In this document: one piece after another, positions 14,077 to 41,489 of the stretch | Layout: every line of letters begins with the position of its first letter | Numbering within the stretch: the first letter of the stretch is position 1 | Assembly: GCA_028873525.1 (NCBI GenBank) | Contig: JAGWIM010000002.1 | Coordinates: forward strand, 1 to 61,021 | Direction of reading: 5' to 3' | DNA from: Pseudomonadota bacterium | Lineage (GTDB): Bacteria; Pseudomonadota; Alphaproteobacteria; Rickettsiales; SXRF01 | Length of the DNA: 61,021 nt | The notes under the pieces: generated by a model | Database searches by the model: none | What the model was told of the DNA's origin: nothing | The model's input: the letters and a program-made list of their open reading frames with translations, nothing else | Position numbers and translations under genes: made by a program

Positions 14077-15400
14077 AGATGTGCGGAACGCGGAATGTGA
14101 ATCGTGGGATGTGAAAAAAGATATTTCTTCCATGCGCCGCGCGCCACGTTCCACGATTCACGTAGTGAATTTCGGCTGCCGGCTCAACGGCTATGAGGGC
14201 GAGGTTATCCGGCAGCAGGCCACTGCCGCCGGGCTGGAGGACGCCATCATTTTCAATAGCTGCGCCGTCACCGCCGAGGCCGAGCGGCAGGTGCGCCAGG
14301 CTATCCGCCGCGCGCGCAAAGCCAGCCCGCAGGCGAAAATCATCGTCACCGGCTGCTCGGCGCAGGTGCATCCAGGTATGTATGCGCACATGAAAGAGGT
14401 GGATACCATCCTCGGCAACGCGGAAAAACTCGAGAAGAGCGGCTATGAATTCGCCATTGCCGGCACCGAAAAGGCGCTGGTGAATGACATCATGTCGGTC
14501 AAGGAAACAGCCCAGCATCTGGTGGCCGGTTTTGAGAGCATGACGCGCGCCTTCGTGCGGGTGCAGAACGGCTGCGACCATCGCTGCACGTTCTGCATCA
14601 TCCCCTATGGCCGCGGCAACAGCCGATCGGTGCCGATCGGCGACATCGTGGCGCAGGTGCGAACGCTGGTGGGGGCGGGCTATAAAGAAGTGGTGCTGAC
14701 CGGGGTTGATATTTCTGATTACGGCAAAGACCTACCGGGCAAGCCGACGCTCGGGGCGATGATGCGCCGGTTGCTTTCGTTAGTGCCGGAACTGCCGCGC
14801 CTGCGGCTGTCGTCTATCGATGCGGTCGAGGCGGATGAGGATTTATACCGGCTGCTGGCCGGGGAGCCGCGCCTGATGCCGCATATCCACATCAGCCTGC
14901 AGGCGGGCGACGATATGATACTCAAGCGTATGAAGCGCCGGCACTCGCGGCAGGACATCCTCGATTTTTGTGCGCGCGTGCGCTCGCTTCGCCCGGATGT
15001 GGTGTTCGGCGCGGACATCATTGCCGGATTTCCGACCGAAACCGAAACCATGTTCCAAAACAGCTTGAACCTCGTCGAGGAAGCCGGACTGACCTGGCTG
15101 CACGTATTTCCTTATTCGGCGCGTGAAGGAACGCCCGCTGCGAAAATGCCGCAGATACCGAAGAAAATTCGCAGGGAACGCGCCGCCCGCCTCCGCAAAG
15201 CGGGCGAAAAACGGGCGGCGGCGTACCTGGCGGCGCAGGTTGGAAAAATTTTGCCGGTGCTGGTTGAAAAAGAACGCGATCGCGGTCATACCGAGCATTT
15301 TGCCGTGGTGGAGCTGGACCGGGAATGTGAGCCGGGGAGCATGGTGGCGGCGAAGATTCTGGGGGTCACCCCGTATTCGCTGCAGGGGCTGGCCGCATGA
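14054..15400 (+). CDS. mtaB: Radical-SAM methylthiotransferase, MiaB-like MtaB
   Basis: The N-terminal FGCRLNGYE motif and the radical-SAM cluster motif CDHRCTFCIIP are both present. The order dapF-mtaB-ftsY matches usual synteny. The true start may be 14069 or 14132. Confidence 0.9.
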   Translation: MKGHGMSEDVRNAECESWDVKKDISSMRRAPRSTIHVVNFGCRLNGYEGEVIRQQATAAGLEDAIIFNSCAVTAEAERQVRQAIRRARKASPQAKIIVTGCSAQVHPGMYAHMKEVDTILGNAEKLEKSGYEFAIAGTEKALVNDIMSVKETAQHLVAGFESMTRAFVRVQNGCDHRCTFCIIPYGRGNSRSVPIGDIVAQVRTLVGAGYKEVVLTGVDISDYGKDLPGKPTLGAMMRRLLSLVPELPRLRLSSIDAVEADEDLYRLLAGEPRLMPHIHISLQAGDDMILKRMKRRHSRQDILDFCARVRSLRPDVVFGADIIAGFPTETETMFQNSLNLVEEAGLTWLHVFPYSAREGTPAAKMPQIPKKIRRERAARLRKAGEKRAAAYLAAQVGKILPVLVEKERDRGHTEHFAVVELDRECEPGSMVAAKILGVTPYSLQGLAA

Positions 15401-16311
15401 GTTTTCTGTCCCATCTTAAATCCGGTCTTGCCAAATCTTCGTCCAGACTGAGCGACGGCATCGCCGGGATTTTTACCAAAACGCGGCTGGGTGAGGCGTC
15501 GCTGGAGCAACTGGAAGATGTGCTGATTGAGGCCGATTTCGGCGCGAAAATGGCGGCAGAACTGGTGGCGGCGCTGGCAAAGCAAAAATTCGACAAGGAT
15601 ATTTCACCGCAAGAGGTGCGCGAGTTTCTGGCGGCGGAGATTGCGAAGATTCTTGAGCCGCCGGCGCAACCGCTGGTTGTTCCTGCGGGCGAGGGGACGA
15701 AAGTCGTTATGATGGTCGGCGTCAACGGTAACGGCAAGACGACGACCATCGGAAAATTGGCCGCCCAGTTTAAGACACAGGGATTTTCGGTGATGCTGGC
15801 GGCGGGTGATACGTTCCGTGCGGCGGCGGTCGAGCAATTGCAGGTGTGGGGCGAGCGTTCGCAGATTCCCGTGGTTACCGGCGTACCGGGGTCTGATCCG
15901 GCCAGCCTTGCCTACCGTGCTTACGAGCAGGCGCGGGCGCAACGCGTGGATGTTTTATTCATCGACACCGCTGGCAGACTGCAGAACAAGGCCAACCTGA
16001 TGGCGGAGTTGCAGAAGATTTCGCGGGTGCTGAAAAAAATTGATGCGAGCGCGCCGCACCATGTGATTCAGGTGCTCGACGCGACAACCGGCCAGAACGC
16101 GATTTCGCAAGTGCAGGCGTTTAAGGAATTGGCACAGGTGACCGGGCTTATCATCACCAAGCTCGACGGTACGGCCAAAGGCGGCATTGTCGTGGCGCTG
16201 GCACGGCAGTTCGGCCTGCCTATTCATGCGATCGGCGTAGGTGAGGGGATAGAGGACTTGGAGATATTCCGGCCGACGGGATTCGCCCGGAACCTGCTTT
16301 CACCGGAATGA
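15397..16311 (+). CDS. ftsY: Signal recognition particle receptor FtsY (short form)
   Basis: Carries the NG-domain motifs GVNGNGKTTTIGKLA, DTAGR and TKLDGTAKGG. Confidence 0.95.
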   Translation: MSFLSHLKSGLAKSSSRLSDGIAGIFTKTRLGEASLEQLEDVLIEADFGAKMAAELVAALAKQKFDKDISPQEVREFLAAEIAKILEPPAQPLVVPAGEGTKVVMMVGVNGNGKTTTIGKLAAQFKTQGFSVMLAAGDTFRAAAVEQLQVWGERSQIPVVTGVPGSDPASLAYRAYEQARAQRVDVLFIDTAGRLQNKANLMAELQKISRVLKKIDASAPHHVIQVLDATTGQNAISQVQAFKELAQVTGLIITKLDGTAKGGIVVALARQFGLPIHAIGVGEGIEDLEIFRPTGFARNLLSPE

Positions 16312-28753: not shown

Positions 28754-30242
<1,489 letters not shown>

Positions 30243-30343
30243 ATTTCAGTATGTTGGGGATCATCCTCAGCCTCTGCCTGATTAAACGAATCATCTTACA
30301 TGACATGCCGCCGCCTGCGCCTAAATGCTCACACAAACTAAAA

Positions 30344-30380
30344 AGGCCTCGGCGTAAGCTGGGGCCTTTTTGTTTGTTTG
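30344..30380 (+). terminator. Rho-independent terminator about 115 nt after the 16S 3-prime end
   Basis: The hairpin AGGCCTCggcgtaagctGGGGCCT is followed by TTTTGTTTGTTTG. Confidence 0.65.
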
Positions 30381-30410
30381 TGGCAATGGCCTATGTTATT
30401 CATAAAGCGC

Positions 30411-30653
30411 ATGAAAACGACCCGCTATTTTGAAGAAGACGTATTAGGTAAAAAACGTCCTTATATGAAACGTGAGTGGTGCATGGAGGCAATTCAGTCT
30501 CCTGACCATAAAATGCTTCAACCGGACGGCAGAGTGCGCTATTATAAATACATTGCGGAAGTACAGAAATTCGTTCGCGTTATTACGCTTGCAGATGGTG
30601 AAACCGTACATAACATATTTTTCGACCGCCGCTTTAAACCTAAGGATCATTGA
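30411..30653 (+). CDS. Small conserved hypothetical protein, probable partner (toxin-like) of the downstream DUF2283 protein
   Basis: 80 aa: MKTTRYFEEDVLGKKRPYMKREWCMEAIQSPDHKMLQPDGRVRYYKYIAEVQKFVRVITLADGETVHNIFFDRRFK. It resembles small proteins that often sit next to DUF2283 genes. The region is low-GC, and only 2 nt separate its stop from the next ATG. Confidence 0.6.
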   Translation: MKTTRYFEEDVLGKKRPYMKREWCMEAIQSPDHKMLQPDGRVRYYKYIAEVQKFVRVITLADGETVHNIFFDRRFKPKDH

Positions 30654-30655
30654 AC

Positions 30656-30871
30656 ATGAAATTCCATTACGATAAGGAAACCGACTCACTTTATATCGAT
30701 TTTATCGATGGACCGGGTGTCGATAACGTCATTGTCACTGATGACATTGTCGCTGACATCGACGTACAAGGGCGTTTAGTTGGGCTGGATATCCAACATG
30801 CCAGCCAGCAATCCGATTTGAGCAATTTTATCGTAGACGGCATGAATCCTGTTCTAAGGCCAGCGATATAA
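30656..30871 (+). CDS. DUF2283-domain protein
   Basis: MKFHYDKETDSLYIDFIDGPGVDNVIVTDDIVADIDVQGRLVGLDIQHAS matches the DUF2283 pattern (YDxExDxLYI...D...GxxVGIEI). Confidence 0.8.
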   Translation: MKFHYDKETDSLYIDFIDGPGVDNVIVTDDIVADIDVQGRLVGLDIQHASQQSDLSNFIVDGMNPVLRPAI

Positions 30872-30875
30872 ATTC

Positions 30876-30914
30876 ACCTGCGGCTGGATTACCTCCTTTC
30901 TAAGGATTTTGTTT
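30876..30914 (+). repeat. 39-bp direct repeat, copy 2 (an ectopic copy of the 16S 3-prime end)
   Basis: Perfect copy of 30204-30242. It begins 5 nt after the DUF2283 stop and ends 27 nt before the next ATG. Confidence 0.95.
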
Positions 30915-30941
30915 TTTGCGTAACAACTTTAAGGAGAAAAT

Positions 30942-31496
30942 ATGCTAAATGATCTTGAAGATAGAATTATTAAAGGTGCGAAGAAAGCGCATATCACCTA
31001 TTTAGAAATGAATGACTATTATCTTCATCATGCACCTGAGCACTTTCTCCAAAATGAGATTGCCCGTACTATTTGGCAGAAGGGCAATGGCAATGATATT
31101 TATATCGATAAGTCAAATGCTCAGGTGCTAAAAGAATTGGATTCTACCAATAAAAAAGGACGTCCTCGGGATGATGCCAGTAAGCGGTTTGATATCACGG
31201 TCTTTAAGCGCTCTGAAAAGCAAATTAAAGCTGTGATCGAGATAAAACGTGGGGATCATATAAGTTTTCAGTCACTGAGAAAGGACACAAAAAAAATAGA
31301 ACACTCTGCAAAATCTCCGAATGGAGCAAAGCTGGGCTATCTTTTAGTATATTCTGTAAGAAAAAAAGAGGAAAAAATTCGAGATGATTTCAAAAAATGG
31401 GAAAAGCGGCTGAAATGGGAATTGAGAGAGAATATAATTGAATCGGATGGCAAATGGACGTGGGGTATCGGATTATTTAAATTTAGCCTACGCTAG
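30942..31496 (+). CDS. Hypothetical protein with a PD-(D/E)xK nuclease-like motif
   Basis: 184 aa, very AT-rich, with a strong AAGGAG Shine-Dalgarno sequence 6 nt upstream. Candidate catalytic motifs are ...RFDITVF... and ...AVIEIKR... (D ... E-x-K). A terminator follows. Confidence 0.6.
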   Translation: MLNDLEDRIIKGAKKAHITYLEMNDYYLHHAPEHFLQNEIARTIWQKGNGNDIYIDKSNAQVLKELDSTNKKGRPRDDASKRFDITVFKRSEKQIKAVIEIKRGDHISFQSLRKDTKKIEHSAKSPNGAKLGYLLVYSVRKKEEKIRDDFKKWEKRLKWELRENIIESDGKWTWGIGLFKFSLR

Positions 31497-31503
31497 ATGA
31501 AAA

Positions 31504-31545
31504 GGCCTCCGTGAAAACGGGGGCTTTTGTTTGTCATTTTTTCAG
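31504..31545 (+). terminator. Rho-independent terminator, sequence-related to the one at 30344-30380
   Basis: The hairpin GGCCTCCGtgaaaaCGGGGGCT is followed by TTTGTTTGTCATTTTTT. It shares the AAAAGGCCTC...GGGGC-TTTTGTTTGT framework with the first terminator. Confidence 0.6.
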
Positions 31546-31663
31546 ATGGTATTATAAATACCGTTACTTATAACCTGTAGTCGCTAGGAGTGGGAGATGT
31601 TTACCATTGCCGGAGGAATAATACTTGCGGTGCTTATTTTGTGCGTAGTGCCTCTCCTCTTGC

Positions 31664-31933
31664 GTGCCGTTAGTGATACCGTTCAGTACCACGCCGCCCG
31701 GTGCCGAACAGCCCTTTCATGTCCGCTTCGAACCGGCGATCTACCCGTTCCTGCATCAGCATCTGCCGAGCTGGGCGAAGTGCAACATGATCAACACGGT
31801 ATCCTGCCAGCGGCTCGACCGCGTTCGGATAGGCAAAAACTACCTTTCTCCACGCATCAATGATGAAGATTTATCAAGGATTTACAAGGCTATGCTGACC
31901 GTCTTCGGGCAAAGGCTTGACAAAGTGCGGTGA
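31664..31933 (+). CDS. Hypothetical protein or gene remnant
   Basis: The 89-aa ORF has high third-position GC, unlike its AT-rich neighbours, and a terminator follows at 31975-32005. The overlapping ORF at 31597-31863 has a good SD (GGAG) and a TM-like N-terminus, so the region may be a frameshifted remnant. Confidence 0.3.
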   Translation: MPLVIPFSTTPPGAEQPFHVRFEPAIYPFLHQHLPSWAKCNMINTVSCQRLDRVRIGKNYLSPRINDEDLSRIYKAMLTVFGQRLDKVR

Positions 31934-31974
31934 AAGCCGTATAGTTACTATGTAATCCGTTAAATCGGGCTTGA

Positions 31975-32005
31975 GACCCCGCCTCCGAGCGGGGTCTAGC
32001 TTTTT
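31975..32005 (+). terminator. Rho-independent terminator
   Basis: The hairpin GACCCCGCctccgaGCGGGGTC is followed by TAGCTTTTT. Confidence 0.55.
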
Positions 32006-32065
32006 CACCCACCCCTCCACCCTCTCGCCATCCCTCCCCGGCAGCACCCGCGCAAACGGCGCTTT
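32002..32065 (+). repeat. 64-bp direct repeat, copy A (flanks the brnTA cassette)
   Basis: Aligns with 32696-32759. The last 32 bp (32034-32065, CTCCCCGGCAGCACCCGCGCAAACGGCGCTTT) are identical to 32728-32759. Confidence 0.9.
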
Positions 32066-32114
32066 CATAAGTATTTGATTAATAAAATTATTATTCTAAT
32101 AGCAAAATCAACCC

Positions 32115-32143
32115 TTGCCTCGCGTATTTACATTGTGTAAATA
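32115..32143 (+). promoter_or_regulatory. Candidate promoter for brnTA (TTGCCT-17 nt-TAAATA)
   Basis: The -35-like TTGCCT lies at 32115-32120 and the -10-like TAAATA at 32138-32143, ending 7 nt before the brnT ATG. This would make the transcript leaderless or give it a very short leader. Confidence 0.3.
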
Positions 32144-32149
32144 TGCCAG

Positions 32150-32428
32150 ATGGATTATACTTGGAATGAAGATAAAAACCGCCGTAACGTCCAGCAACAT
32201 GGAATCGCCTTCAAAGATGCGATACGCATTTTTGACGGCCCGACCGTCGAGCGGGTGGATGACCGGTTTGAATACGGAGAAATCCGGGTTTATGCCATCG
32301 GCGTGGTAAACGGATTGGAAATCACGGTGATATACACCGACGGGGACAATGACGAACGACGCATTATTTCAGCATGGAGATCAGAACCGCATGAACGACG
32401 ATATTACTGGCAACAACTCAACACCTGA
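32150..32428 (+). CDS. brnT: BrnT-family (DUF497) ribonuclease toxin
   Basis: MDYTWNEDKNRRNVQQHGIAFKDAIRIFDGP...RIISAWRSEPHERRYY matches the BrnT pattern (WDxxKxxxNxxKHGVxFxEA...RIISARxAxxxE). Confidence 0.85.
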   Translation: MDYTWNEDKNRRNVQQHGIAFKDAIRIFDGPTVERVDDRFEYGEIRVYAIGVVNGLEITVIYTDGDNDERRIISAWRSEPHERRYYWQQLNT

Positions 32429-32687
32429 TCCAGTCACCGATTGGGAACGGCTTCGCCGTCTCGATGCGACGGAAATACGGGCAGCCATTGATGCCGATCC
32501 AGATGCTCACGCTACGGACGAAGCATTCTGGAAGGATGCCAAGGTGGTGCTACCGCGTCCAAAGGAAACCATTACAATGCGGCTCGATGCCGACCTGTTG
32601 TCCTGGTTACGGCAGGAACGCGGCTACCAGACCCGCATTAACGCCATCCTTCGTGCCTACATGAAAACCCACAGTTCGCACGCGTAA
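32391..32687 (+). CDS. brnA: BrnA-type antitoxin (DUF4415-like)
   Basis: Its C-terminal ITMRLDADLLSWLRQERGYQTRINAILRAYM is the BrnA/DUF4415 signature. I chose the ATG at 32391; the ORF extends back to 32349. Confidence 0.8.
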   Translation: MNDDITGNNSTPDPVTDWERLRRLDATEIRAAIDADPDAHATDEAFWKDAKVVLPRPKETITMRLDADLLSWLRQERGYQTRINAILRAYMKTHSSHA

Positions 32688-32695
32688 TCATAAAG

Positions 32696-32759
32696 TTTTC
32701 GCCCACCACCTCCACCCCCCGCTATTCCTCCCCGGCAGCACCCGCGCAAACGGCGCTTT
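32696..32759 (+). repeat. 64-bp direct repeat, copy B
   Basis: See copy A. It begins 9 nt after the brnA stop. Confidence 0.9.
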
Positions 32760-33124: not shown

Positions 33125-33982
33125 TTACATCCGTTTCCCCATCTTCCCGGCTAAATCCTGAATGAATTGCCACGCCACGCGGCCGGAGCGCGCGCCCCGC
33201 GCAGCCGCCCATTCGAGTGCCTGGACGTGCAGGTTGTTCAGCGTGATGCCCAGCGTGTAATGCCCGGCGTAACACTCGACGATGGCGAGGTAGGTCTCCT
33301 GCGAGCAGGCGTGAAAGCCCAGCCACAAACCGAAGCGGTCGGACAGCGAGATTTTTTCCTCCACCGCCTCGCCCGGCTGGATGGCGGTTCGCTGTTCGTT
33401 TTCGATCATGTCGCGCGGCATCAGGTGGCGGCGGTTGGAGGTGGCGTAAAACAACACGTGGCTGGGGCGGCCTTCGATGCCGCCTTCGAGCACGCCCCTT
33501 AGCGATTTGTAGCTGCTGTCTTCGTGGTCGAACGAGAGGTCGTCGCAGAATAAAATGAACCGGCGGATGACCCAGCCGCGAAGCGCGGTGAGCAGTTGCG
33601 GCAGCGTGCGGACATCCTCGCGGTGGATTTCCACCAGCACGAGGCTATGCGGCGTTTCTCGGTTGACCGCGGCGTGCACCGCCTTGACCAGCGAGCTTTT
33701 GCCCATGCCGCGCGCACCCCACAGCAGCGCGTTATTGGCCGAATGGCCGCGCGCGAACTGCCGCGTGTTGGCCAGCAGCGTGTCCTTCGCCTGGTCGATG
33801 CCCATGAGGAGTTTCAGGTCAAGATGCGCGGTTTCAGCCACCGGCCGCAGCGCCTTGTGCGCCGGATCCCATGTGTAGGCATCGGCGCTTTTGACATCCA
33901 CCGGCTCTTCCGGCGCCGGCGCCAGTTTCTCAACGGCAACGGCGATGCGCTGCAACATGCGGATTTCGTCCTGGGAGGTCAT
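33125..33982 (-). CDS. DUF815-family AAA-type ATPase
   Basis: Contains the Walker A motif GARGMGKSSLVKA and the overall DUF815 pattern (LLWGARGTGKSS...; FCDDLSF). Confidence 0.85.
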   Translation of the reverse strand: MTSQDEIRMLQRIAVAVEKLAPAPEEPVDVKSADAYTWDPAHKALRPVAETAHLDLKLLMGIDQAKDTLLANTRQFARGHSANNALLWGARGMGKSSLVKAVHAAVNRETPHSLVLVEIHREDVRTLPQLLTALRGWVIRRFILFCDDLSFDHEDSSYKSLRGVLEGGIEGRPSHVLFYATSNRRHLMPRDMIENEQRTAIQPGEAVEEKISLSDRFGLWLGFHACSQETYLAIVECYAGHYTLGITLNNLHVQALEWAAARGARSGRVAWQFIQDLAGKMGKRM

Positions 33983-34806
33983 GAACAGGTATCCATTTTG
34001 TGATGCTCCAATATTGTTTTCGATGCGTCCGATACCGCGAGATTCTCCGGCACCGGGCGCTCGCCGCGCATCATTGCCGCCAGTTCCTGCTGGAAGGAGT
34101 TGAGTGCTGGCGCGTCGTCATCCATGGCACCGGTTTTGGCGCGGTAAAGGGAGTGGTTCATATAGGCGTTGATCTCGCGGGCGTACGGCAGGCGGAGGCC
34201 ATGTACGCCCTGCGCGACCATCGCGTGATAGATCTGCGCTGTAGTATTGACCGGATCGGCCATCATATCCGAATGCAACACGAAAATGCGCGGCAGGCCG
34301 GCCGAGGCATTAAGCAGTGACACGGCATAGGCCTCCCATAGCGCCATGCCGCGATGCAGCGACGGAATGGTATCGTACTTGCGGATACGCAGCGACTGCG
34401 CAATTTCCAGCGGATCGCGGTAAACAATGACAAAGACCGGCACCTCCAGCAGCGGCTTCCAATGCGGAAGCGTGAGGCACATATAGGGATCCTTCATCAC
34501 CCAGGGTCGGTGTGAGTCCATATTGAACACGATGGTCTTCATCTGCAGGGGCAGTGCCGGTCCCTGGTGCGGCGGCTTCCAGTCGATCACCCACGGCGTG
34601 ACGTTCAGCGCGCGCCAGTCCGGGTTATGCAGCTTGAGCAATGATACATTGCATTCCACCACGTCGCGGCGCTCCCAGTAACCCTTCGGATTATCCTGGT
34701 TAAAGCCGCACATGCCTTCCGGGCCGACATACGCGCCCATCATGTTGATGAGCCGCGTCGTCAGCGAGGTGCCGGAGCGGTGCATTCCCAGAATAATAAT
34801 CTGCAT
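33979..34806 (-). CDS. Sulfotransferase-family protein
   Basis: A 5-prime-PSB-like motif (ILGMHRSGTSLTT) and a 3-prime-PB-like motif (VYRDPLEIAQSL) are present. I chose the ATG at 34806; the ORF extends to a TTG at 34827. It overlaps the DUF815 start by 4 nt. Confidence 0.8.
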   Translation of the reverse strand: MQIIILGMHRSGTSLTTRLINMMGAYVGPEGMCGFNQDNPKGYWERRDVVECNVSLLKLHNPDWRALNVTPWVIDWKPPHQGPALPLQMKTIVFNMDSHRPWVMKDPYMCLTLPHWKPLLEVPVFVIVYRDPLEIAQSLRIRKYDTIPSLHRGMALWEAYAVSLLNASAGLPRIFVLHSDMMADPVNTTAQIYHAMVAQGVHGLRLPYAREINAYMNHSLYRAKTGAMDDDAPALNSFQQELAAMMRGERPVPENLAVSDASKTILEHHKMDTCS

Positions 34807-34915
34807 GGATAAGGATGATAGCGTCAAAAATACGGCAACGCCAGCGCCGGAAGAAATAAAAATGTCATGGCATTAACCATGAGGAGCGATACAATGCCGC
34901 CTTGGATTATCCACA

Positions 34916-35700
34916 ATGTTTATTGCCGTGACTGAAAAACGCATTATTTTCACCGTTACTTCGGGACGTAGCGGCACGAAATATCTGACCCATCTCCTGA
35001 CCGGCTTGCCCGACGTTGCAGCGGAACATGAGCCGACGCCCGAATTTAGTTCGTGTATGCCACAGGCGCGGCATGATCCGGCGCTGGCCACACGTTTTCT
35101 GACGGAGCAGAAATTGCCGCACATCCATGCCGTCCCGCAGTCAATCTATGTGGAAACAAGCCATTACGTCGGCAAAGGGTTCCTCGACTCGCTGCTGGAA
35201 CTGGGTGTTGTACCCGACCTGATTATGTTACGCCGCGATCCAAGACAAGTAGCCAGCAGTTGGTTCCTGATCGGCGGCGGAGTTAAGAAACTACATGACG
35301 GTGTATTTTATAAGAATATGCTTGGTCCGCATGAGCCGAATTTTCTTCCGGCGCGGCATTGGGATGCCTGGAATGATTATCAGCTATGCTATTGGTATGC
35401 GCTGGAGACACATTTCCGCATCCGGCATTATGCGTCGCTTATCGCTGTGCACGGCGGAAAAATCTTCGATACATCGCTGCCGGAGCTTGCCGAAGGCGAC
35501 GACTATAAACCTCTGCTGGAATGGCTTGAGGTGCCGGAAGATATTATCAGGATACGTGTGGGCGATGCCTCTTTCAGGCGTACTAAAATCAATGACATGC
35601 AAAGCAAAAAAGTCATCAAAGGTCGTGAGCAGGAACTTGCAGCCCTCGACCTGGATCGTCTGGAAGCACAGGTGTTTGCCGATTGCGGGATTTCATGCAG
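34916..35700 (+). other. Domain: sulfotransferase-like N-terminal module
   Basis: TVTSGRSGTKYLTHLL is a PAPS 5-prime-phosphosulfate-binding-like loop, and LRRDPRQVASSWF is a 3-prime-phosphate-binding-like RDP motif. Confidence 0.6.
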
Positions 35701-38700
35701 ACAGGCGGACGATGTGGTGTGGTCCGTGGCGCCAGTGTCGGGTAAACAACCGTGCCTCTTCGTCAACATTGCCAGCTACCGCGATCCGGAATGCCAATGG
35801 ACGGTGAAGGATTTGTTTGAAAAGGCGGCGCGTCCGGAACGAATCAATGTCGGCATCTGCTGGCAGTCTGATCCGGAGGCGGATCAGGAGTGCTTTACTG
35901 TTCCCTCGCCGCGGCCGGAGCAGACGCGCATCATCAATTATCATATCCGCGACAGCAAGGGCGCCAACTGGGCGCGGGCACAGGCCATGACATTGAAGCA
36001 GGGCGAGGAATATGTGCTGGTCATCGATTCGCACATGCGGTTTGAGCCAGGCTGGGATGAATTATTGCTGGAAGCGCTGAAACGTTGCCCGTCTGAAAAA
36101 GCGATGCTTACCGCCTGGCTGCCAGGATACAAGCCGCCGGATAAGCTGGATCCTGACGGCGGCAGGCTGGCGCGGCTGCGTATCTCAAGCCTGCAATGGG
36201 ACGGCAGCGACGCGCAGCTGACGAATCTCAACTGCTTCCATGCGCCTGCCGATGCCGTGCGCGGACGCATGGATCCATCCTGCTCGCTGGTGGCCAACTG
36301 CATGTTCGGTCCGGCGAAGGCATTTGAGGAAGTACCGTTCGACCCGCATATCGATTTCTGGGGCGATGAAATCAACCAGTCGGCGCGGCTGTGGACGCAT
36401 GGCTGGGATTTTTTCCAGCTCGACCGCCGCGTGCTGTACCATTACTGGGATCCGGAAAATATTAAAGACCGTGAAACCTATCGTGATAGAAAAAACCCAC
36501 GTCACCAGCGCGCGCGCAGGCGTAACCTGCACCTGTTGCTTATCGAGCGATCGGAGGACAGAAAAGCGATTGCCGAGATCGAAAAATATCCGCTGGGGAC
36601 AATACGCGCCATTGCTGATTACTGGCGCTTCATGGATGTTGACCTTGCCAAAAAAGTCATTGGGGAGCGAGGTGCGCGCGGGCAGTGGAAAAATTTGCCT
36701 GCGGCGGTGGGCAAGCCGCCGCGCATCTTCGTCAACATCGCCAGCTATCGTGATCCGGAAACGCAGGCGACGGTGGACGATTTATTCGCCAAGGCGACGC
36801 ATCCGGAGCGCATCCATGTGGGCATCTGCCTGCAGCTGGATCCGAAGGAAGACGTTGCCTGCACGGTGCGTCCCGAAGGCTATCCGGGAAAGATGCGCAT
36901 CACGCAGGTGCATCATAAAGCAAGTAAAGGCGCCGGGTGGGCGAGGGCGGAGGCGCTGCAATTATGGGACGGCGAGGAATATATACTGGCCATTGATTCA
37001 CACATGCGTTTCGAGCCGGGATGGGACGAGGCGCTGATCGATATGCAGAGGCGTTGCCCGCCGCGATCTTTGCTCAGCACGTACGTGCCGCGCTACACGC
37101 CGCCCGACAGGCGCGACCAGTTTCCCGGCCAGATACTGCGCATCCGCATACATGGGCTGGCTGAGGCGGGAAATCCGCAGACGCTGCATAATACCAAGAT
37201 ACCGGTGCCGCTGACCGACAAGGAACGCAGCGGACTTTACCGCACGCCGTTCGTCATCGCCAATTTCATTTTCTGCCCGGCCGGAGTGCTGCGGGAAGTG
37301 CCGTTCGACCCGTATATCCGTTTCTGGGGCGACGAGGCCACGCTCTCGGCGCGGCTGTGGACGCACGGCTACGATATCTACCAGCCGGATAAAACCGTGG
37401 CCTATCATTACTGGCGGCGCGACGAACTGGTGCCCATCCAACCCTACCGGAATATGGATACGCCGGAAAGCCGCTGTTCGCACGCGCGTATCCGGCATCT
37501 GCTCGGCTTTGAAGCGACGACAAACCAAGAAGCGCTGGCGGAAATTGAGAAATATGGATTAGGAACGGCGCGGCGGCTGGAGGATTTATGGACATTCGCC
37601 GGTATCGACTGGCAGCGTCGAACCGTCAGTCAGAACGCACTGGAGGGACGGTGGAATACGGCAAAGAAGATAGAGAGAATATTCGTCAACATCGCCAGCT
37701 ACCGCGACGTCGAATGCCAGTGGACGGTAAATGACCTGTTCGAGAAAGCGGCGCACCCGGAGCGCGTATTCGTCGGGCTTTGCTGGCAGTATGACCCGGC
37801 GGAAGACAAGCATTGTTTTCAAATACCGCCGTCCAGGCCGGAACAGGTGCGGCTGCTGCCGGTTGATTGGCGCGATGCCGGGGGCGTGTGCTGGGCGCGG
37901 CATCAGGCGCAGCAATTATGGGAAGGCGAGGAATACACGCTGATGATCGACAGCCATATGCGTTTCGTGCCGGGCTGGGATGATCTGATGATGGCAGAGC
38001 TGGCCGCCTGTGATTCCAAAAAGCCGGTGCTGTCCTGTAGCCCGCCGCCCTACACGCCGCCGAATCACTTAAGTAAAAACATGAACCCCACCGTGCGGCG
38101 CGTCAAGCCCTTCATGGCCGACGGCAACATACGCTGCCAGGGCGAGATGCTCGACCGCGTGCCGGAGCATCCGCTGCGCGGCGCGTTCATCGTCGCCAAT
38201 TTCGTTTTCTCGCGCTCGGAGATTATCCGCGAGGTGCCATATGATCCGTACCTCTATTTCGACCAGGAAGAAATCACCTACGCCGCGCGGCTTTACACGC
38301 ACGGCTGGGACGTGTTTTCCACGCGGCGGCAATGCCTTTATCACTTCTACAACGACCCCAAAACCTCGGTGCGGCCGCTGCACTGGAGCGACATGAGCAA
38401 GTCGGACAAGGCCGATAACGAACGCATCAAATACCTGTATGCCCGCGGGCTGGCGCGATTCAACCATCTGACCGGCTATAAACTTTCAACCGATCCGGAT
38501 GTAACGGCGGCACTGGATAAATACGGATTCGGAAAAATGCGGACGCTGGCGGAATTCGAGGCGTTCACCGGCGTTGATTTCAAGCGCAAGATTGCTTCGG
38601 AACGGGCGCTGCGCGGCGGGTTCATCGAGGATTTGCAGAAATACCGCGACCGGCCGTTCTTCGTGCCGGAGATTGATAAAAAACCGGCGCCCGCGCCCAT

Positions 38701-39889
38701 GGCCGCGCCGCCGAAAGCAGGCAGGCTGAATGTTGGCGACTTCATTCCAATGTTCGACGTGGTGGATGACAACGGACAGCCGCGTGCCGTCGAGATTTAC
38801 GCCGGACGGCATTCTTTGCTGTTTTTTCTCTCGGCGGAGGATGTCGCTTACGCCCGACAATGTATGGCCGCACTGCAGCGGCTGATACCGCGTGGGATGC
38901 ACGAAAAAATCTGGCTGATATACGTTGTCAACGCGCCGGTTGAACAGTTGAAAATGCTGAAGCAGCAGATCGGTACGGGGCATAGCCTGTGGGCCGATCC
39001 GGAAGGAAAAATAGCGCAGGCCTTCAGCGTTGCGGCCCCGGCGGGCTTCCTGCTCAACCAGAATCTTAAAATATTGCATCGCTATGACCGGATGCCGCCG
39101 GAGGCAATGGCATCTTCCATTGTCGCTGACGGGCAGAACGCGCTGGAGTCCTACCGCTTCAAGAACCGCGTTCCGCGCACCGTCGCCGAATTGCCGCCGG
39201 CGCTGATCGTGCCGGACGCCTTCACGCCGGCGCTCTGCGAAAAATGCATCGCCTCTTTCCGCAGCGGCCATAGCTTCGAGGGCACGGTCGGCGCCGAGAA
39301 CAAGCTGGCTTACCGCCCCAGCGCAAAGATTCGTACCGACCATATCGTATCGTCGCCGCTGCTGGAGGAAATTGACGATAAATTATCGCGCAGCCTGTTT
39401 CCCGAGATACGCAAGGTGTTCGGCTTTGAGGTGGCGTACCGCGAACTGTATAAAGTCGGGCTTTACACCGGCGAAAAAGGCGGATTTTTCCAGCGGCACC
39501 GCGATAATTTCGAGCCGCCGCTGGGCTATCGCCGCGTGGCGATGACGCTGCATCTCAACAATGATTATGAAGGCGGCGGGCTGCATTTCCCCGAATATGA
39601 CGATAACATCTATCGCCCGGTCGCGGGCAGCGCCATCGCCTTTTCCTGCGCGACCTTGCATGAGGCGCGGCCGGTGACGCGCGGCGAGCGCTTCGTGCTG
39701 GTCGGATTTTTCCACGGCGAACAGGACGAGGCCTACCGCCGTCAGTACCTGGCAGAGAAGGGTAGTCCGCTCAAGATTAAGGATTACACACCGTTGCTGG
39801 CGCCGGATCCGCCGATCCGGCAGGGACGCGATTTCTACCGCAACTGGCGCAAAAAATATGTGCGTTTTGATGGACAGGACAAAAAATGA
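34916..39889 (+). CDS. 1,657-aa multidomain protein: sulfotransferase-like, 3x GlcNAc-transferase-like, redoxin-like and 2OG-Fe(II) oxygenase domains
   Basis: A single uninterrupted ORF with no signal peptide or TM segment. The domain motifs are listed in the sub-features below. Confidence 0.9.
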   Translation: MFIAVTEKRIIFTVTSGRSGTKYLTHLLTGLPDVAAEHEPTPEFSSCMPQARHDPALATRFLTEQKLPHIHAVPQSIYVETSHYVGKGFLDSLLELGVVPDLIMLRRDPRQVASSWFLIGGGVKKLHDGVFYKNMLGPHEPNFLPARHWDAWNDYQLCYWYALETHFRIRHYASLIAVHGGKIFDTSLPELAEGDDYKPLLEWLEVPEDIIRIRVGDASFRRTKINDMQSKKVIKGREQELAALDLDRLEAQVFADCGISCRQADDVVWSVAPVSGKQPCLFVNIASYRDPECQWTVKDLFEKAARPERINVGICWQSDPEADQECFTVPSPRPEQTRIINYHIRDSKGANWARAQAMTLKQGEEYVLVIDSHMRFEPGWDELLLEALKRCPSEKAMLTAWLPGYKPPDKLDPDGGRLARLRISSLQWDGSDAQLTNLNCFHAPADAVRGRMDPSCSLVANCMFGPAKAFEEVPFDPHIDFWGDEINQSARLWTHGWDFFQLDRRVLYHYWDPENIKDRETYRDRKNPRHQRARRRNLHLLLIERSEDRKAIAEIEKYPLGTIRAIADYWRFMDVDLAKKVIGERGARGQWKNLPAAVGKPPRIFVNIASYRDPETQATVDDLFAKATHPERIHVGICLQLDPKEDVACTVRPEGYPGKMRITQVHHKASKGAGWARAEALQLWDGEEYILAIDSHMRFEPGWDEALIDMQRRCPPRSLLSTYVPRYTPPDRRDQFPGQILRIRIHGLAEAGNPQTLHNTKIPVPLTDKERSGLYRTPFVIANFIFCPAGVLREVPFDPYIRFWGDEATLSARLWTHGYDIYQPDKTVAYHYWRRDELVPIQPYRNMDTPESRCSHARIRHLLGFEATTNQEALAEIEKYGLGTARRLEDLWTFAGIDWQRRTVSQNALEGRWNTAKKIERIFVNIASYRDVECQWTVNDLFEKAAHPERVFVGLCWQYDPAEDKHCFQIPPSRPEQVRLLPVDWRDAGGVCWARHQAQQLWEGEEYTLMIDSHMRFVPGWDDLMMAELAACDSKKPVLSCSPPPYTPPNHLSKNMNPTVRRVKPFMADGNIRCQGEMLDRVPEHPLRGAFIVANFVFSRSEIIREVPYDPYLYFDQEEITYAARLYTHGWDVFSTRRQCLYHFYNDPKTSVRPLHWSDMSKSDKADNERIKYLYARGLARFNHLTGYKLSTDPDVTAALDKYGFGKMRTLAEFEAFTGVDFKRKIASERALRGGFIEDLQKYRDRPFFVPEIDKKPAPAPMAAPPKAGRLNVGDFIPMFDVVDDNGQPRAVEIYAGRHSLLFFLSAEDVAYARQCMAALQRLIPRGMHEKIWLIYVVNAPVEQLKMLKQQIGTGHSLWADPEGKIAQAFSVAAPAGFLLNQNLKILHRYDRMPPEAMASSIVADGQNALESYRFKNRVPRTVAELPPALIVPDAFTPALCEKCIASFRSGHSFEGTVGAENKLAYRPSAKIRTDHIVSSPLLEEIDDKLSRSLFPEIRKVFGFEVAYRELYKVGLYTGEKGGFFQRHRDNFEPPLGYRRVAMTLHLNNDYEGGGLHFPEYDDNIYRPVAGSAIAFSCATLHEARPVTRGERFVLVGFFHGEQDEAYRRQYLAEKGSPLKIKDYTPLLAPDPPIRQGRDFYRNWRKKYVRFDGQDKK
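35750..36715 (+). other. Domain: GlcNAc-transferase-like (Pfam GlcNAc/PF11397-like) repeat 1
   Basis: LFVNIASYRDPECQWTVKDLFEKAARPERINVGICWQ ... VLVIDSHMRFEPGWD ... FWGDEINQSARLWTHGWDFF ... AEIEKYPLG. Confidence 0.7.
36716..37675 (+). other. Domain: GlcNAc-transferase-like repeat 2
   Basis: IFVNIASYRDPETQATVDDLFAKATHPERIHVGICLQ ... ILAIDSHMRFEPGWD ... FWGDEATLSARLWTHGYDIY ... AEIEKYGLG. Confidence 0.7.
37676..38590 (+). other. Domain: GlcNAc-transferase-like repeat 3
   Basis: IFVNIASYRDVECQWTVNDLFEKAAHPERVFVGLCWQ ... TLMIDSHMRFVPGWD ... YFDQEEITYAARLYTHGWDVF ... ALDKYGFG. Confidence 0.7.
38720..39090 (+). other. Domain: thioredoxin-fold / AhpC-TSA-like (redoxin-like)
   Basis: VGDFIPMFDVVDDNGQPRAVEIYAGRHSLLFFLSAED...LWADPEGKIAQAFSV follows the peroxiredoxin layout. 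The canonical T-x-x-C peroxidatic motif is not evident. Confidence 0.5.
39190..39720 (+). other. Domain: 2OG-Fe(II) oxygenase (prolyl-4-hydroxylase-like, PF13640-like)
   Basis: The facial triad is H1528-x-D1530 (QRHRDN, nt 39497-39505) plus H1582 (nt 39659-39661). The 2OG-binding Arg lies in HEARPVTRGERFVLVGFF. Confidence 0.75.
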
Positions 39890-39905: not shown

Positions 39906-41489
39906 ATGACGGATATTAAGGAATTAGCGCTGGCGAGCCAGGCTTGGCCGTTTGAGGAAGCGCGCAAGCTGGTGGAGCGCTTCAAGAGCGGCGCGCCCGC
40001 CAAGGGCTGCGTGTTGTTTGAAACCGGCTACGGGCCTTCGGGGCTGCCGCATATCGGCACCTTCATGGAAGTCTTCCGCACGACGCTGGTGCGCCATGCG
40101 TTTCAGCAGATGTCCGATATTCCGACGCGGCTGTTCGCCGTGTCGGACGATATGGACGGGCTGCGCAAAGTGCCGGACAATATTCCGAATCAGGGCATGG
40201 TGCGCGCCCATCTCGGCTTGCCTTTGACCGCCATTCCCGACCCGTTCGGCACGCACGAGAGCTACGGCGCGCATATGAACGCGCGGCTGTGTAAGTTCCT
40301 CGATAATTACGGCTTCGAATACGAATTTCTAAGCTCGACCGAGCAATATAAAAAAGGCGTCTATGATGAAAAATTGCTGGAGGCGTTGAAGCAGTACGAC
40401 AAGATCATGGACGTGATGCTGCCGACGCTGGGCGAGGAGCGCCGCGCCACCTACAGCCCGTTCATGCCGATCTCGCCCAGGACCGGGCAGGTGCTGCAGG
40501 TACCGGTCATCCGCCGCGATATGACGAAAGGCACGATTACCTATAAGGAAGAGGATGGCGAGGAAGTGACGGTGCCGGTGACCGGCGGCCACTGCAAGCT
40601 GCAATGGAAACCCGATTTCGGCATGCGCTGGGCGGCGCTGGACGTGGATTTCGAGATGTACGGCAAGGACCACCAGCCGAACGCGCCGCTCTACAATGCC
40701 ATCTGCCATATCCTCGGCGGGCGCGGGCCGGAGCAATATGTGTATGAGATGTTCCTCGACGCCGAGGGCAGGAAAATCTCCAAGTCGAAAGGCAACGGCA
40801 TCAGCATCGAGGACTGGCTGCGTTATGCGCCGCCGGAGAGCCTCAGCTATTACATGTACCAGTCGCCGCGCAAGGCCAAGCGGCTCTATTTCGATGTCAT
40901 CCCGCGCGCGGTGGACGATTACCAGAGTTTTCTCGAAAAATTCGAGCAGGAAGACCCGGCGAAGCAACTGAATAACCCGGTGTGGCACATCCACGGCGGA
41001 AACCCGCCGAAGCCGGAGGGCATTCCCGGATTCAACCTGCTGCTGAATCTGGCGGGCGTGTCGCAGGCCGAGGACCCGAAAGCGCTGTGGGGGTATGTGG
41101 CGCGCTACCGGCCGCAATTCTCGCCTGAGACCCACCCGTTCCTTGATAAGCTGGTGCAGGGCGCGGTGAATTACTATCACGATTTCATCAAGCCGACGAA
41201 AAAATACCGGCTGCCGACCGAGCCGGAAGCCAAGGCGCTGGGGGAACTGGCCGACTGGCTGGAAAAAGCGCCTCCTGCGGCGACGCCTGAGGAAATACAG
41301 AACGAGATTTATGAAATCGGCAAAAAGGATTTCGCCGATAATCTCAAAGGCTGGTTCTCCGCCATGTATGAAACCCTGCTCGGCCAGCCGCAGGGCCCGC
41401 GCATGGGTTCATTCGTCGCGCTGTATGGCAAGGCAGAGACAGTGCGGCTGATACGGCGCGTATTGGCGAAAGAGGATCTGGCGGCGTGA
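39906..41489 (+). CDS. lysK: Lysyl-tRNA synthetase, class I
   Basis: Class I LysRS pattern with LPHIGT (HIGH) and KISKSKG (KMSKS). I chose the start MTDIKELA at 39906. Confidence 0.95.
   Translation: MTDIKELALASQAWPFEEARKLVERFKSGAPAKGCVLFETGYGPSGLPHIGTFMEVFRTTLVRHAFQQMSDIPTRLFAVSDDMDGLRKVPDNIPNQGMVRAHLGLPLTAIPDPFGTHESYGAHMNARLCKFLDNYGFEYEFLSSTEQYKKGVYDEKLLEALKQYDKIMDVMLPTLGEERRATYSPFMPISPRTGQVLQVPVIRRDMTKGTITYKEEDGEEVTVPVTGGHCKLQWKPDFGMRWAALDVDFEMYGKDHQPNAPLYNAICHILGGRGPEQYVYEMFLDAEGRKISKSKGNGISIEDWLRYAPPESLSYYMYQSPRKAKRLYFDVIPRAVDDYQSFLEKFEQEDPAKQLNNPVWHIHGGNPPKPEGIPGFNLLLNLAGVSQAEDPKALWGYVARYRPQFSPETHPFLDKLVQGAVNYYHDFIKPTKKYRLPTEPEAKALGELADWLEKAPPAATPEEIQNEIYEIGKKDFADNLKGWFSAMYETLLGQPQGPRMGSFVALYGKAETVRLIRRVLAKEDLAA

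Follow-up and report, generated by a model that had tools for sequence, protein, structure and literature searches.

Within the 61,021-nt stretch of DNA analysed here, called the window (contig JAGWIM010000002.1 of assembly GCA_028873525.1, from an alphaproteobacterium of the Rickettsiales lineage SXRF01), one forward-strand gene encodes a single large protein that joins GT60-family glycosyltransferase modules to a predicted hydroxylase. The protein is, most probably, a bacterial equivalent of the protist and animal enzymes that first hydroxylate a residue and then glycosylate it. From N- to C-terminus it consists of a probable sulfotransferase-fold domain, three GT60 modules (A, B and C), a peroxiredoxin-fold (Prx-fold) domain and a 2-oxoglutarate- and Fe(II)-dependent (2OG-Fe(II)) oxygenase. 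The C-type GT60 module, the Prx-fold domain and the oxygenase form the invariant core of a whole protein family; modules A and B and the sulfotransferase-fold N-terminus are lineage-variable additions. The parts of the gene are as follows, with PHD and P4H standing for prolyl hydroxylase domain and prolyl 4-hydroxylase.

34916..39889, + strand: large open reading frame (ORF) of 1,657 codons, 4,974 nt including the stop codon, with no internal stop
34916..35704, + strand: probable sulfotransferase-fold domain, residues 1-263 (AlphaFold2, Foldseek and motifs; Pfam sub-threshold)
35741..36709, + strand: GT60 (PF11397) module A, residues 276-598, with IDSH and its DxH at residues 371-373
36710..37669, + strand: GT60 (PF11397) module B, residues 599-918, with DxH at residues 694-696
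37670..38650, + strand: GT60 (PF11397) module C, residues 919-1245, with DxH at residues 1012-1014; the conserved type adjoining the Prx-fold and oxygenase domains
38723..39169, + strand: BCP/PrxQ peroxiredoxin-fold domain without the catalytic Cys, residues ~1270-1418 (Pfam, profile and Foldseek)
39197..39760, + strand: predicted PHD/P4H-type 2OG-Fe(II) oxygenase, residues ~1428-1615, with H1528-x-D1530, H1582 and R1592
39761..39886, + strand: basic C-terminal tail, residues 1616-1657, of low model confidence (model and alignment)

The evidence that carries this conclusion comes from the relatives of the protein. A homologue search over 5.8 billion proteins found 109 of them, the best being 59% identical. 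Almost all of these stem from metagenome-assembled genomes (MAGs) or metagenomes with the label Alphaproteobacteria, Rickettsiales or Pseudomonadota, and they are uncharacterised proteins to which NCBI gives the name 'GlcNAc-transferase family protein'. The uniqueness of the architecture had been overstated in an earlier interpretation made from the letters of the window (the sequence-only reading); the protein belongs to a family already in the databases, with more than 100 proteins built on a (GT60)n-Prx-oxygenase core. When the window domains were mapped onto the relatives, a common plan emerged of one to five GT60 modules, the Prx-fold domain and the oxygenase. Optional parts are an N-terminus of ~300 residues that is Glyco_trans_1_2-like (GT1-like) and a second C-terminal 2OG oxygenase, which in many homologues occupies the position of the tail; the window protein has neither. 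Among the mapped relatives, the fused sulfotransferase-like N-terminus is common only to the window protein and P0001.

By position the GT60 modules are orthologous, with the A- and B-types and a fourth type that is absent from the window protein preceding the C-type. In the relatives, the module adjoining the Prx-oxygenase pair always scores ~500-570 bits against window module C, compared with ~200 bits against A or B. An exhaustive profile search for the Prx-oxygenase didomain over 1.84 billion representatives yielded at least 886 clusters at E<=1e-30. The best 150 matches include ~106 stand-alone didomains of 350-400 residues and ~25 proteins of ~750 residues in which a single GT60 module precedes the didomain, and in single-module proteins of this kind the GT module is of the C-type in 28 of 28 cases. 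Because the C-type module always adjoins the Prx-oxygenase pair, even in these minimal three-domain proteins, the hydroxylase and one particular glycosyltransferase appear to work together, and this is the strongest computed evidence at hand. The link of the oxygenase to GT60 is thus firmer than the sequence-only reading could tell, with the core present in over 100 proteins and also found alone at ~750 residues. One distant relative of 996 residues (P0089, GT60-Prx-oxygenase-oxygenase) is encoded on a 385-kb contig (L014, 1-20991), where six neighbouring ORFs of 253-755 residues gave no Pfam match at E<=0.01; an unusual bacterium, a eukaryote or a giant virus are candidates for the organism that carries it.

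The ORF could in principle be an assembly chimera, or a decaying gene without function. Its closest relatives all come from MAGs or metagenomes, so the sequence may have a metagenomic origin too, and one related contig (L021) is heavily frameshifted. Against this stand an ORF unbroken over all of its length, as had been noted, catalytic residues that are conserved, and an identical domain order in independent assemblies from JGI, ENA, NCBI and Logan. Modules A, B and C are 38-46% identical in pairwise protein comparisons and 60-75% identical as DNA, and because the latter value is so low, collapse of the repeats during assembly is not a concern. Taken together, an artefact or a dead gene is extremely improbable. 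Codon usage in the large ORF is that of the adjacent housekeeping genes, and aligned homologues begin 3-7 residues from the ATG of the ORF at 34916. The protein had also been described as free of a signal peptide and transmembrane segments. The highest Kyte-Doolittle mean over 19 residues is 1.45, which makes a membrane segment unlikely, and the N-terminus is taken up by strand 1 and the phosphate-binding loop of the sulfotransferase fold rather than by a signal peptide. The large protein is one intact cytoplasmic polypeptide; in the window annotation, no export, flippase or polyprenol genes lie near its gene.

Each GT60 module spans ~320 residues. Three copies of PF11397 (GlcNAc, CAZy GT60) had been expected, and the profile matches at E 4e-188 and 625 bits (cut-off 21) in six stretches that amount to the three modules. 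The repeated motifs that had been quoted are in place, with FVNIASYRD at residues 282, 605 and 923 and IDSHMRF at 370, 693 and 1011; ARLWTHG(W/Y)D holds for the first two modules, while the third has ARLYTHGWD. A DxH motif instead of DxD is the hallmark of families GT27 and GT60 (PMC7185993). IDSH, which contains it, is present in 3 of 3 modules of the window protein, and DxH is kept in 264 of 309 GT60 modules across the family. Modules without it are concentrated at the first position of many four-module proteins (P0004-P0034), where QAH or HAH is found instead; to go by these motifs, such modules may be inactive or may employ other metal chemistry. The GT60 family is reported to be restricted to prokaryotes and protists (PMC7185993), its enzymes glycosylate hydroxyproline (Hyp) or Thr (PMC8724618), and the characterised GT60 and GT27 enzymes all act on polypeptides (PMC7185993, PMC8724618). 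Prokaryotic GT60 enzymes have been reported, and as far as we found in the literature they have never been characterised. A sequence search of the PDB with a GT60 module gave nothing useful, and the PDB contains no GT60 structure or sequence.

The glycosyltransferase modules might also act independently of the hydroxylase, in mucin-type O-glycosylation of Ser and Thr at several sites, with the oxygenase modifying some other site or serving as an O2-sensing regulator and the target perhaps being exported later. GT60 enzymes of Trypanosoma cruzi and of the Dictyostelium Golgi do glycosylate Thr/Ser (PMC8724618), and several similar modules would suit dense multi-site modification, as with the GalNAc-transferase isoforms. 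Giant secreted proteins adjoin stand-alone bacterial GT60 genes as well: in Methylophaga sp. OBS3 the gene comes after that of a 3,295-residue LapA-like adhesin, and in a Burkholderiaceae MAG it lies beside a methyltransferase and a 2,652-residue Gly/Asp-rich RTX-like protein. That the C-type module is so strictly paired with the Prx-oxygenase didomain, minimal proteins included, argues instead for a direct link between hydroxylation and glycosyl transfer, and in its own clade the large gene has no adhesin or secretion genes near it. We therefore consider this explanation quite unlikely. Stand-alone contexts were examined on three contigs (L005 27-10966, L003 6381-18521 and L019 8995-18894); in Azospirillum thermophilum such a gene lies beside an extracellular contractile injection system cluster, and others are found on plasmids of several cultured genera. 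Such contexts suggest that bacterial GT60s as a group may act on proteins, but they say nothing direct about the fused family.

Turning to the hydroxylase, the oxygenase half of the C-terminal region is highly conserved, and H1528, D1530, H1582 and R1592, which the sequence-only reading had listed correctly as HxD...H...R, are invariant in the homologue alignments. The expected PF13640 (2OG-FeII_Oxy_3) was matched with E 1e-12 and 49-51 bits against a cut-off of 27. A profile from a 19-sequence alignment (A2, reference residues 1262-1657 of the window protein) was compared with the PDB, where the oxygenase half matched PiuC (6e-8), Sbal_3634, LH3 (7e-7), P3H1 (4e-5) and mimivirus L230 (3e-3), the LH3 and L230 matches spanning only ~55 residues. 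No sequence match to PHD2 or PhyA was obtained there at E<=0.01. For the AlphaFold2 model of the Prx-oxygenase region (predicted local distance difference test score, pLDDT, 83), the best Foldseek match of the oxygenase was Pseudomonas PPHD in the PPHD-EF-Tu structure 4iw3 (E 8e-11, TMt 0.71), with human PHD2 (TMt 0.66), Trichoplax PHD and PiuC also found; PhyA structures do not occur in the first 50 fold matches. By sequence and modelled fold, the domain is assigned as a PHD/P4H-type hydroxylase, and on these matches its residue could be Pro or Lys. The description of the oxygenase as prolyl-4-hydroxylase-like stands as regards the PHD/P4H-type fold and the intact triad. The specific tie to PhyA does not, since the sequence is nearer to PiuC, LH3 and P3H1 and the fold is nearest to PPHD and PHD2.

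Between module C and the oxygenase lies the Prx-fold domain. It matches the expected AhpC-TSA family just above the cut-off of 26 bits (27-30 bits; E 4e-6 at 27.3 bits), and in the profile search against the PDB its half matches BCP/PrxQ peroxiredoxins, the best being Bcp1 (3drn, 2e-10), to which the modelled domain is also similar by Foldseek (TMt 0.84). The redoxin-like domain had been said to lack an obvious peroxidatic Cys. Indeed, Ala1313 occupies that position of the PxxxTxxC motif, both the Thr and the Cys are missing, and no Cys is conserved at this position in 73 fused and 95 stand-alone homologues. Since the peroxidatic Cys is absent, the domain cannot be a peroxidase, and that role was rejected; it has the fold of a peroxiredoxin and should not carry that name. 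One of the stand-alone didomains, none of which conserves the Cys, is from the cyanobacterium Oscillatoria sp. SIO1A7. Proteins that combine a Prx-fold domain without catalytic Cys and an oxygenase are a widespread, uncharacterised family that deserves curation.

The N-terminal domain was assigned by structure prediction. An AlphaFold2 model of residues 1-263 has a mean pLDDT of 91.3. When it was compared with the PDB by Foldseek, each of the 33 top-ranked matches was a sulfotransferase that uses 3'-phosphoadenosine-5'-phosphosulfate (PAPS), with E 2e-5 to 7e-3 and probabilities of 0.97-1.0. TPST is the top match, and cytosolic SULTs, heparan-sulfate 3-O- and 2-O-sulfotransferases and the sulfotransferase domain of CurM are also found. 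Sequence searches of the PDB with the domain, as a single sequence and as a 50-sequence profile, gave nothing useful. In the 50-sequence alignment T15, G17, R18, G20, R107 and S115 are invariant, and H38, E39, H83 and K87 likewise. The quoted motifs SGRSGTKYL and RRDPRQVASS are present at residues 16 and 106, and SGRSGT together with R107...S115 resemble the 5'-phosphosulfate- and 3'-phosphate-binding motifs. The domain thus has a predicted sulfotransferase fold and probably binds PAPS; the sequence-only reading was right to call it sulfotransferase-like as far as fold and PAPS-binding-like motifs go, and Pfam at threshold does not bear it out. The domain family numbers at least 168 members, mostly stand-alone proteins of ~260 residues and nearly all without a Pfam match. 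They are 'hypothetical proteins' from a wide range of bacteria, among them Candidatus Electrothrix, Planctomycetota and Opitutales, with the invariant signature SGRSGT...HEP...SH..KGF...R.......S, and this sulfotransferase-fold family outside Pfam coverage deserves curation. In the window gene the GC content of third codon positions is 0.56 over the N-terminal part (34916-35740), as against 0.71 in the rest of the ORF and 0.70-0.82 in the neighbours, which would agree with the domain having been acquired and fused more recently. All five domain types that had been proposed for the one polypeptide are thus accounted for, with the absent peroxidatic Cys and the intact 2OG/Fe site.

If these assignments are put together, the large protein would hydroxylate a protein residue in an O2-dependent reaction and then glycosylate and sulfate it, all within the cytoplasm. 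By analogy with the systems discussed below we put the probability of this at roughly 0.5. With O2 and 2-oxoglutarate as co-substrates, the oxygenase would hydroxylate an amino-acid side chain in a protein or peptide, Pro being the more likely residue and Lys a possible one. The C-type GT60 module, with Mn2+ at its DxH, would then transfer a sugar from a UDP-sugar to the new hydroxyl, giving alpha-GlcNAc if Gnt1 is a guide. Module B and then module A might extend the glycan or glycosylate further sites, and the sulfotransferase domain, together with a sulfotransferase encoded by the neighbouring gene, may pass sulfate from PAPS to the glycan or the protein. The Prx-fold domain would probably act as a scaffold or as a substrate-binding part of the oxygenase. 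The product of such a pathway would be a cytoplasmic, O2-dependent glycan linked to a hydroxy-amino acid and possibly sulfated. That a polypeptide would be modified is suggested by the relatives, since GT60 and GT27 enzymes act on polypeptides and PPHD, PHD2, LH3 and P3H1 hydroxylate proteins.

Several observations weigh against this proposal. The matches of the oxygenase are split, with the sequence leading to PiuC, for which a substrate is not established, and to the lysyl hydroxylase LH3, and the fold leading to prolyl hydroxylases. A Pfam Sulfotransfer match had been expected for the N-terminal domain, and both profiles stayed under their cut-offs (PF13469 at 16.6 bits against 27 and PF00685 at 15.2 bits against 22, E ~0.01); the TM-scores of its Foldseek matches are modest at 0.39-0.51. 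We know of no GT60 enzyme that extends a glycan, so the role given to modules A and B is a guess, and the donor sugar is not readable from sequence. The window contains no collagen-like GXY runs and no Pro-rich or repetitive ORFs, and across eight related loci no small ORF is conserved outside the known genes. Finally, the carriers are uncultured, and the proposal draws on sequence and predicted structure. The idea of a precursor for a ribosomally synthesised and post-translationally modified peptide is without support, there being no conserved small ORF at the eight loci.

This empty search for a protein substrate, in the window and at the related loci, also bears on the nature of the acceptor, which may not be a protein. 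The system could make a cytoplasmic sulfated oligosaccharide, a glycolipid or a small-molecule glycoside, in which case the oxygenase would hydroxylate a free amino acid or the aglycone, and sugars would be added one after another by the GT60 modules. Three to five paralogous, position-ordered GT modules accompanied by sulfotransferases do resemble a glycan assembly line; the accessory modules differ by lineage, as they do in glycan-diversifying loci, and no protein has been proven to be the substrate of the PiuC-type enzymes related to the oxygenase. However, every characterised GT60 or GT27 enzyme works on polypeptides, structurally the oxygenase matches best with prolyl hydroxylases that act on proteins, and no genes for sugar-nucleotide synthesis, lipid carriers, flippases or export were found in or near the eight loci. 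A non-protein acceptor is accordingly unlikely, though it keeps some weight, and modification of a protein residue is the reading that we retain.

Sulfation by the same system gains support from the surroundings of the gene, in which the following features were recognised.

33979..34827, - strand: separate Sulfotransfer_3 gene, divergent from the large gene (PF13469, 32.8 bits against a cut-off of 27)
34828..34915, no strand: divergent intergenic region of 88 bp with one promoter-like site
39906..41489, + strand: class-I lysS, encoding lysyl-tRNA synthetase (NCBIfam NF001968, 850 bits)

The Sulfotransfer_3 protein has the motifs HRSGTS and YRDPLEIAQS, and its gene probably starts at an ATG six codons into the listed TTG ORF (MQIIILGMHRSGTS...). 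Orthologues with 43-56% identity occupy the same divergent place on five related contigs (L001, L002, L010, L011 and that of P0015). On L010 the counterpart of the N-terminal domain of the large protein has a gene to itself, 54% identical and followed by a GT1-like gene, whereas on L009 the sulfotransferase-fold N-terminal domain is fused as in the window. It is the conserved divergent gene and the separate L010 gene that strengthen sulfation as part of the system, as had been suggested. L011 has an extra two-module GT60 gene before the large gene, and from this and the split gene of L010 the locus appears as a modular toolkit in which accessory components may be fused, separated or exchanged. 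The promoter-like site in the intergenic region (34867-34895, + strand; ATGGCA-17-TACAAT) agrees with the consensus at 9 of 12 positions, which is weak, since the count of such sites is not above chance.

Downstream, the longest lysS ORF, from 39858, would overlap the large gene by 32 nt; the NF001968 alignment begins at ORF residue 18, and the likely start is the ATG at 39906 (MTDIKELA...), 16 nt past the stop codon of the large gene. No convincing terminator was seen between the two genes, and their co-transcription is likely; a functional link of the large gene to lysS is only a possibility. The same arrangement is found on L002, L009, L010, L011, L016 and the P0015 contig, and on L016 it survives an inversion that moved the HAD-to-lysA block elsewhere. 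On L021 PemK-type toxin-antitoxin genes (15292-16140) come between the large gene and lysS; this contig is full of frameshifted housekeeping genes, suggesting an error-prone assembly. Because the lysyl-tRNA synthetases are 71-82% identical among the related loci, the shared gene order is mostly inheritance within one clade, and synteny was largely rejected as functional evidence. A DUF815 ATPase gene was rejected as a part of the system: a photolyase gene intervenes on L011, and the P0015 contig lacks it.

The remainder of the window is an ordinary alphaproteobacterial chromosome with alaS, recA, a cusCBA-like pump, dapF, ftsY, gltA, dsbD, rph, 16S, class-I lysS, argH, lysA, sdhAB and hppA, indicative of free-living-type metabolism at 58% GC. 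A complete 16S rRNA gene is present at 28754-30227 (+ strand, 1,548 bits). Neither tRNA genes (ARAGORN) nor 23S or 5S genes (Rfam) were found in the 61 kb, and since 23S and 5S are missing from them, the rRNA genes are unlinked, an arrangement shared by many streamlined or host-associated Alphaproteobacteria. After the 16S gene, a stretch at ~30300-32700 has a GC fraction of 0.45 compared with ~0.59 and holds a BrnT/BrnA pair (32150-32428 and 32349-32687), a PemK/MazF-like fragment (31664-31933) and a Lys-rich ORF of 184 residues without a Pfam match (30942-31496). It looks like a small mobile-cassette insertion where the rRNA spacer and 23S gene normally sit.

The separation of 16S from 23S, familiar from many host-associated Alphaproteobacteria, raises the question of whether the protein is delivered as an effector to a eukaryotic host, with a symbiont or predator mimicking or hijacking the PhyA/Gnt1 modification of Skp1 or of another host protein. 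Some carrier MAGs are labelled Rickettsiales, the domain set is eukaryote-like (GT60, a PHD-type hydroxylase and TPST as top fold match), and the injection system of Azospirillum thermophilum mentioned above would be in keeping with delivery into a host. The gene, however, has a fixed core-genome position by lysS among housekeeping genes across the clade and native codon usage, the metabolism and base composition of the window are those just described, and no secretion system or signal is evident. An effector role is very unlikely, and the preferred function remains modification of a protein residue in the cytoplasm.

A more far-reaching version of this function would make the protein responsible for the first bacterial O2-dependent glycosylation of Hyp or hydroxylysine (Hyl) in a cytoplasmic protein, make it a counterpart and possibly the evolutionary source of the oxygen sensing by PhyA and Gnt1 on Skp1, and explain the adjacency of lysS by a target in the translation apparatus, as EF-Tu is for PPHD. 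All of this holding at once is quite unlikely. Were it true, sulfation would join the modifications of bacterial cytoplasmic glycoproteins, none of which is known to carry it. The questions opened are whether bacteria make Hyp- or Hyl-linked glycans, which targets PHD-like oxygenases have beyond that of PPHD, and where the eukaryotic PhyA/Gnt1 pair originated.

How the protein relates to known systems is best judged one system at a time. Protists provide the closest parallel. There, PhyA and Gnt1 are a cytoplasmic PHD-type 2OG oxygenase and a GT60 enzyme (PF11397, with DxH), and prolyl hydroxylase-Gnt1 fusions into one polypeptide are common, for example in Pythium ultimum (PMC6437050, PMC8724618). 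The order of events, hydroxylation followed by glycosylation of the new hydroxyl, is the one proposed here, and later glycosyltransferases of the Skp1 pathway are also fused, in pairs. To our knowledge, cytoplasmic hydroxylation-dependent O-glycosylation comes only from protists, where modification of Skp1 serves oxygen sensing, and Skp1/SCF is not known in bacteria, so the target must be a different one. Unlike the protist enzyme with its one GT60 module, the window protein has three, along with an obligatory Prx-fold domain between glycosyltransferase and oxygenase and sulfotransferase domains; PHD2 and PPHD are resembled by fold only, and PhyA and PHD2 are absent from the PDB sequence matches. 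The hydroxylase of the protist fusion is reportedly N-terminal, the opposite of the order here.

In the animal and viral enzymes LH3 (PLOD3) and mimivirus L230, one chain likewise contains an N-terminal GT-A domain or domains, a non-catalytic middle domain and a C-terminal 2OG hydroxylase, and the hydroxylated residue is then glycosylated. Their structures are solved, and both are among the profile matches of the oxygenase. Their glycosyltransferases belong to a family other than GT60, though, their accessory domain does not have a peroxiredoxin fold, and they have no sulfotransferase. LH3 moreover acts on collagen in the lumen of the endoplasmic reticulum, where this analogous collagen pathway works, and the window has no collagen-like gene. 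Pseudomonas PPHD, whose structure is the best fold match of the oxygenase, is bacterial and cytoplasmic and hydroxylates EF-Tu, a component of translation. In contrast to the window protein it is a single domain without glycosyltransferase, Prx-fold or sulfotransferase partner, its product has no known glycosylation, and its sequence similarity to the window oxygenase is too low for a PDB sequence match.

The three chemistries converge on one substrate in plants, where peptide hormones of the PSY1 type carry Tyr sulfation, Pro hydroxylation and Hyp arabinosylation (PMC7913133). The fold of the N-terminal domain, matched best by TPST, recalls this system as well. In plants, however, separate Golgi enzymes from other GT families act on a secreted peptide, and near the bacterial locus no gene for a precursor peptide was seen. 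In the literature that we searched, bacterial GT60 or PF11397 enzymes and Prx-P4H fusions are nowhere characterised, in line with the sequence-only reading, which knew of no characterised bacterial system with such an architecture; it overstated the novelty, given that hydroxylase-glycosyltransferase fusions are known from protist PhyA-Gnt1, LH3 and L230. What differs from these fusions is the bacterial cytoplasmic setting without Skp1, the several differentiated GT60 modules, the obligatory Prx-fold domain and the sulfotransferase partners. A conserved bacterial family in which a PHD-type hydroxylase is tied to one specific type of GT60 module is a concrete and testable entry point to the questions raised above.

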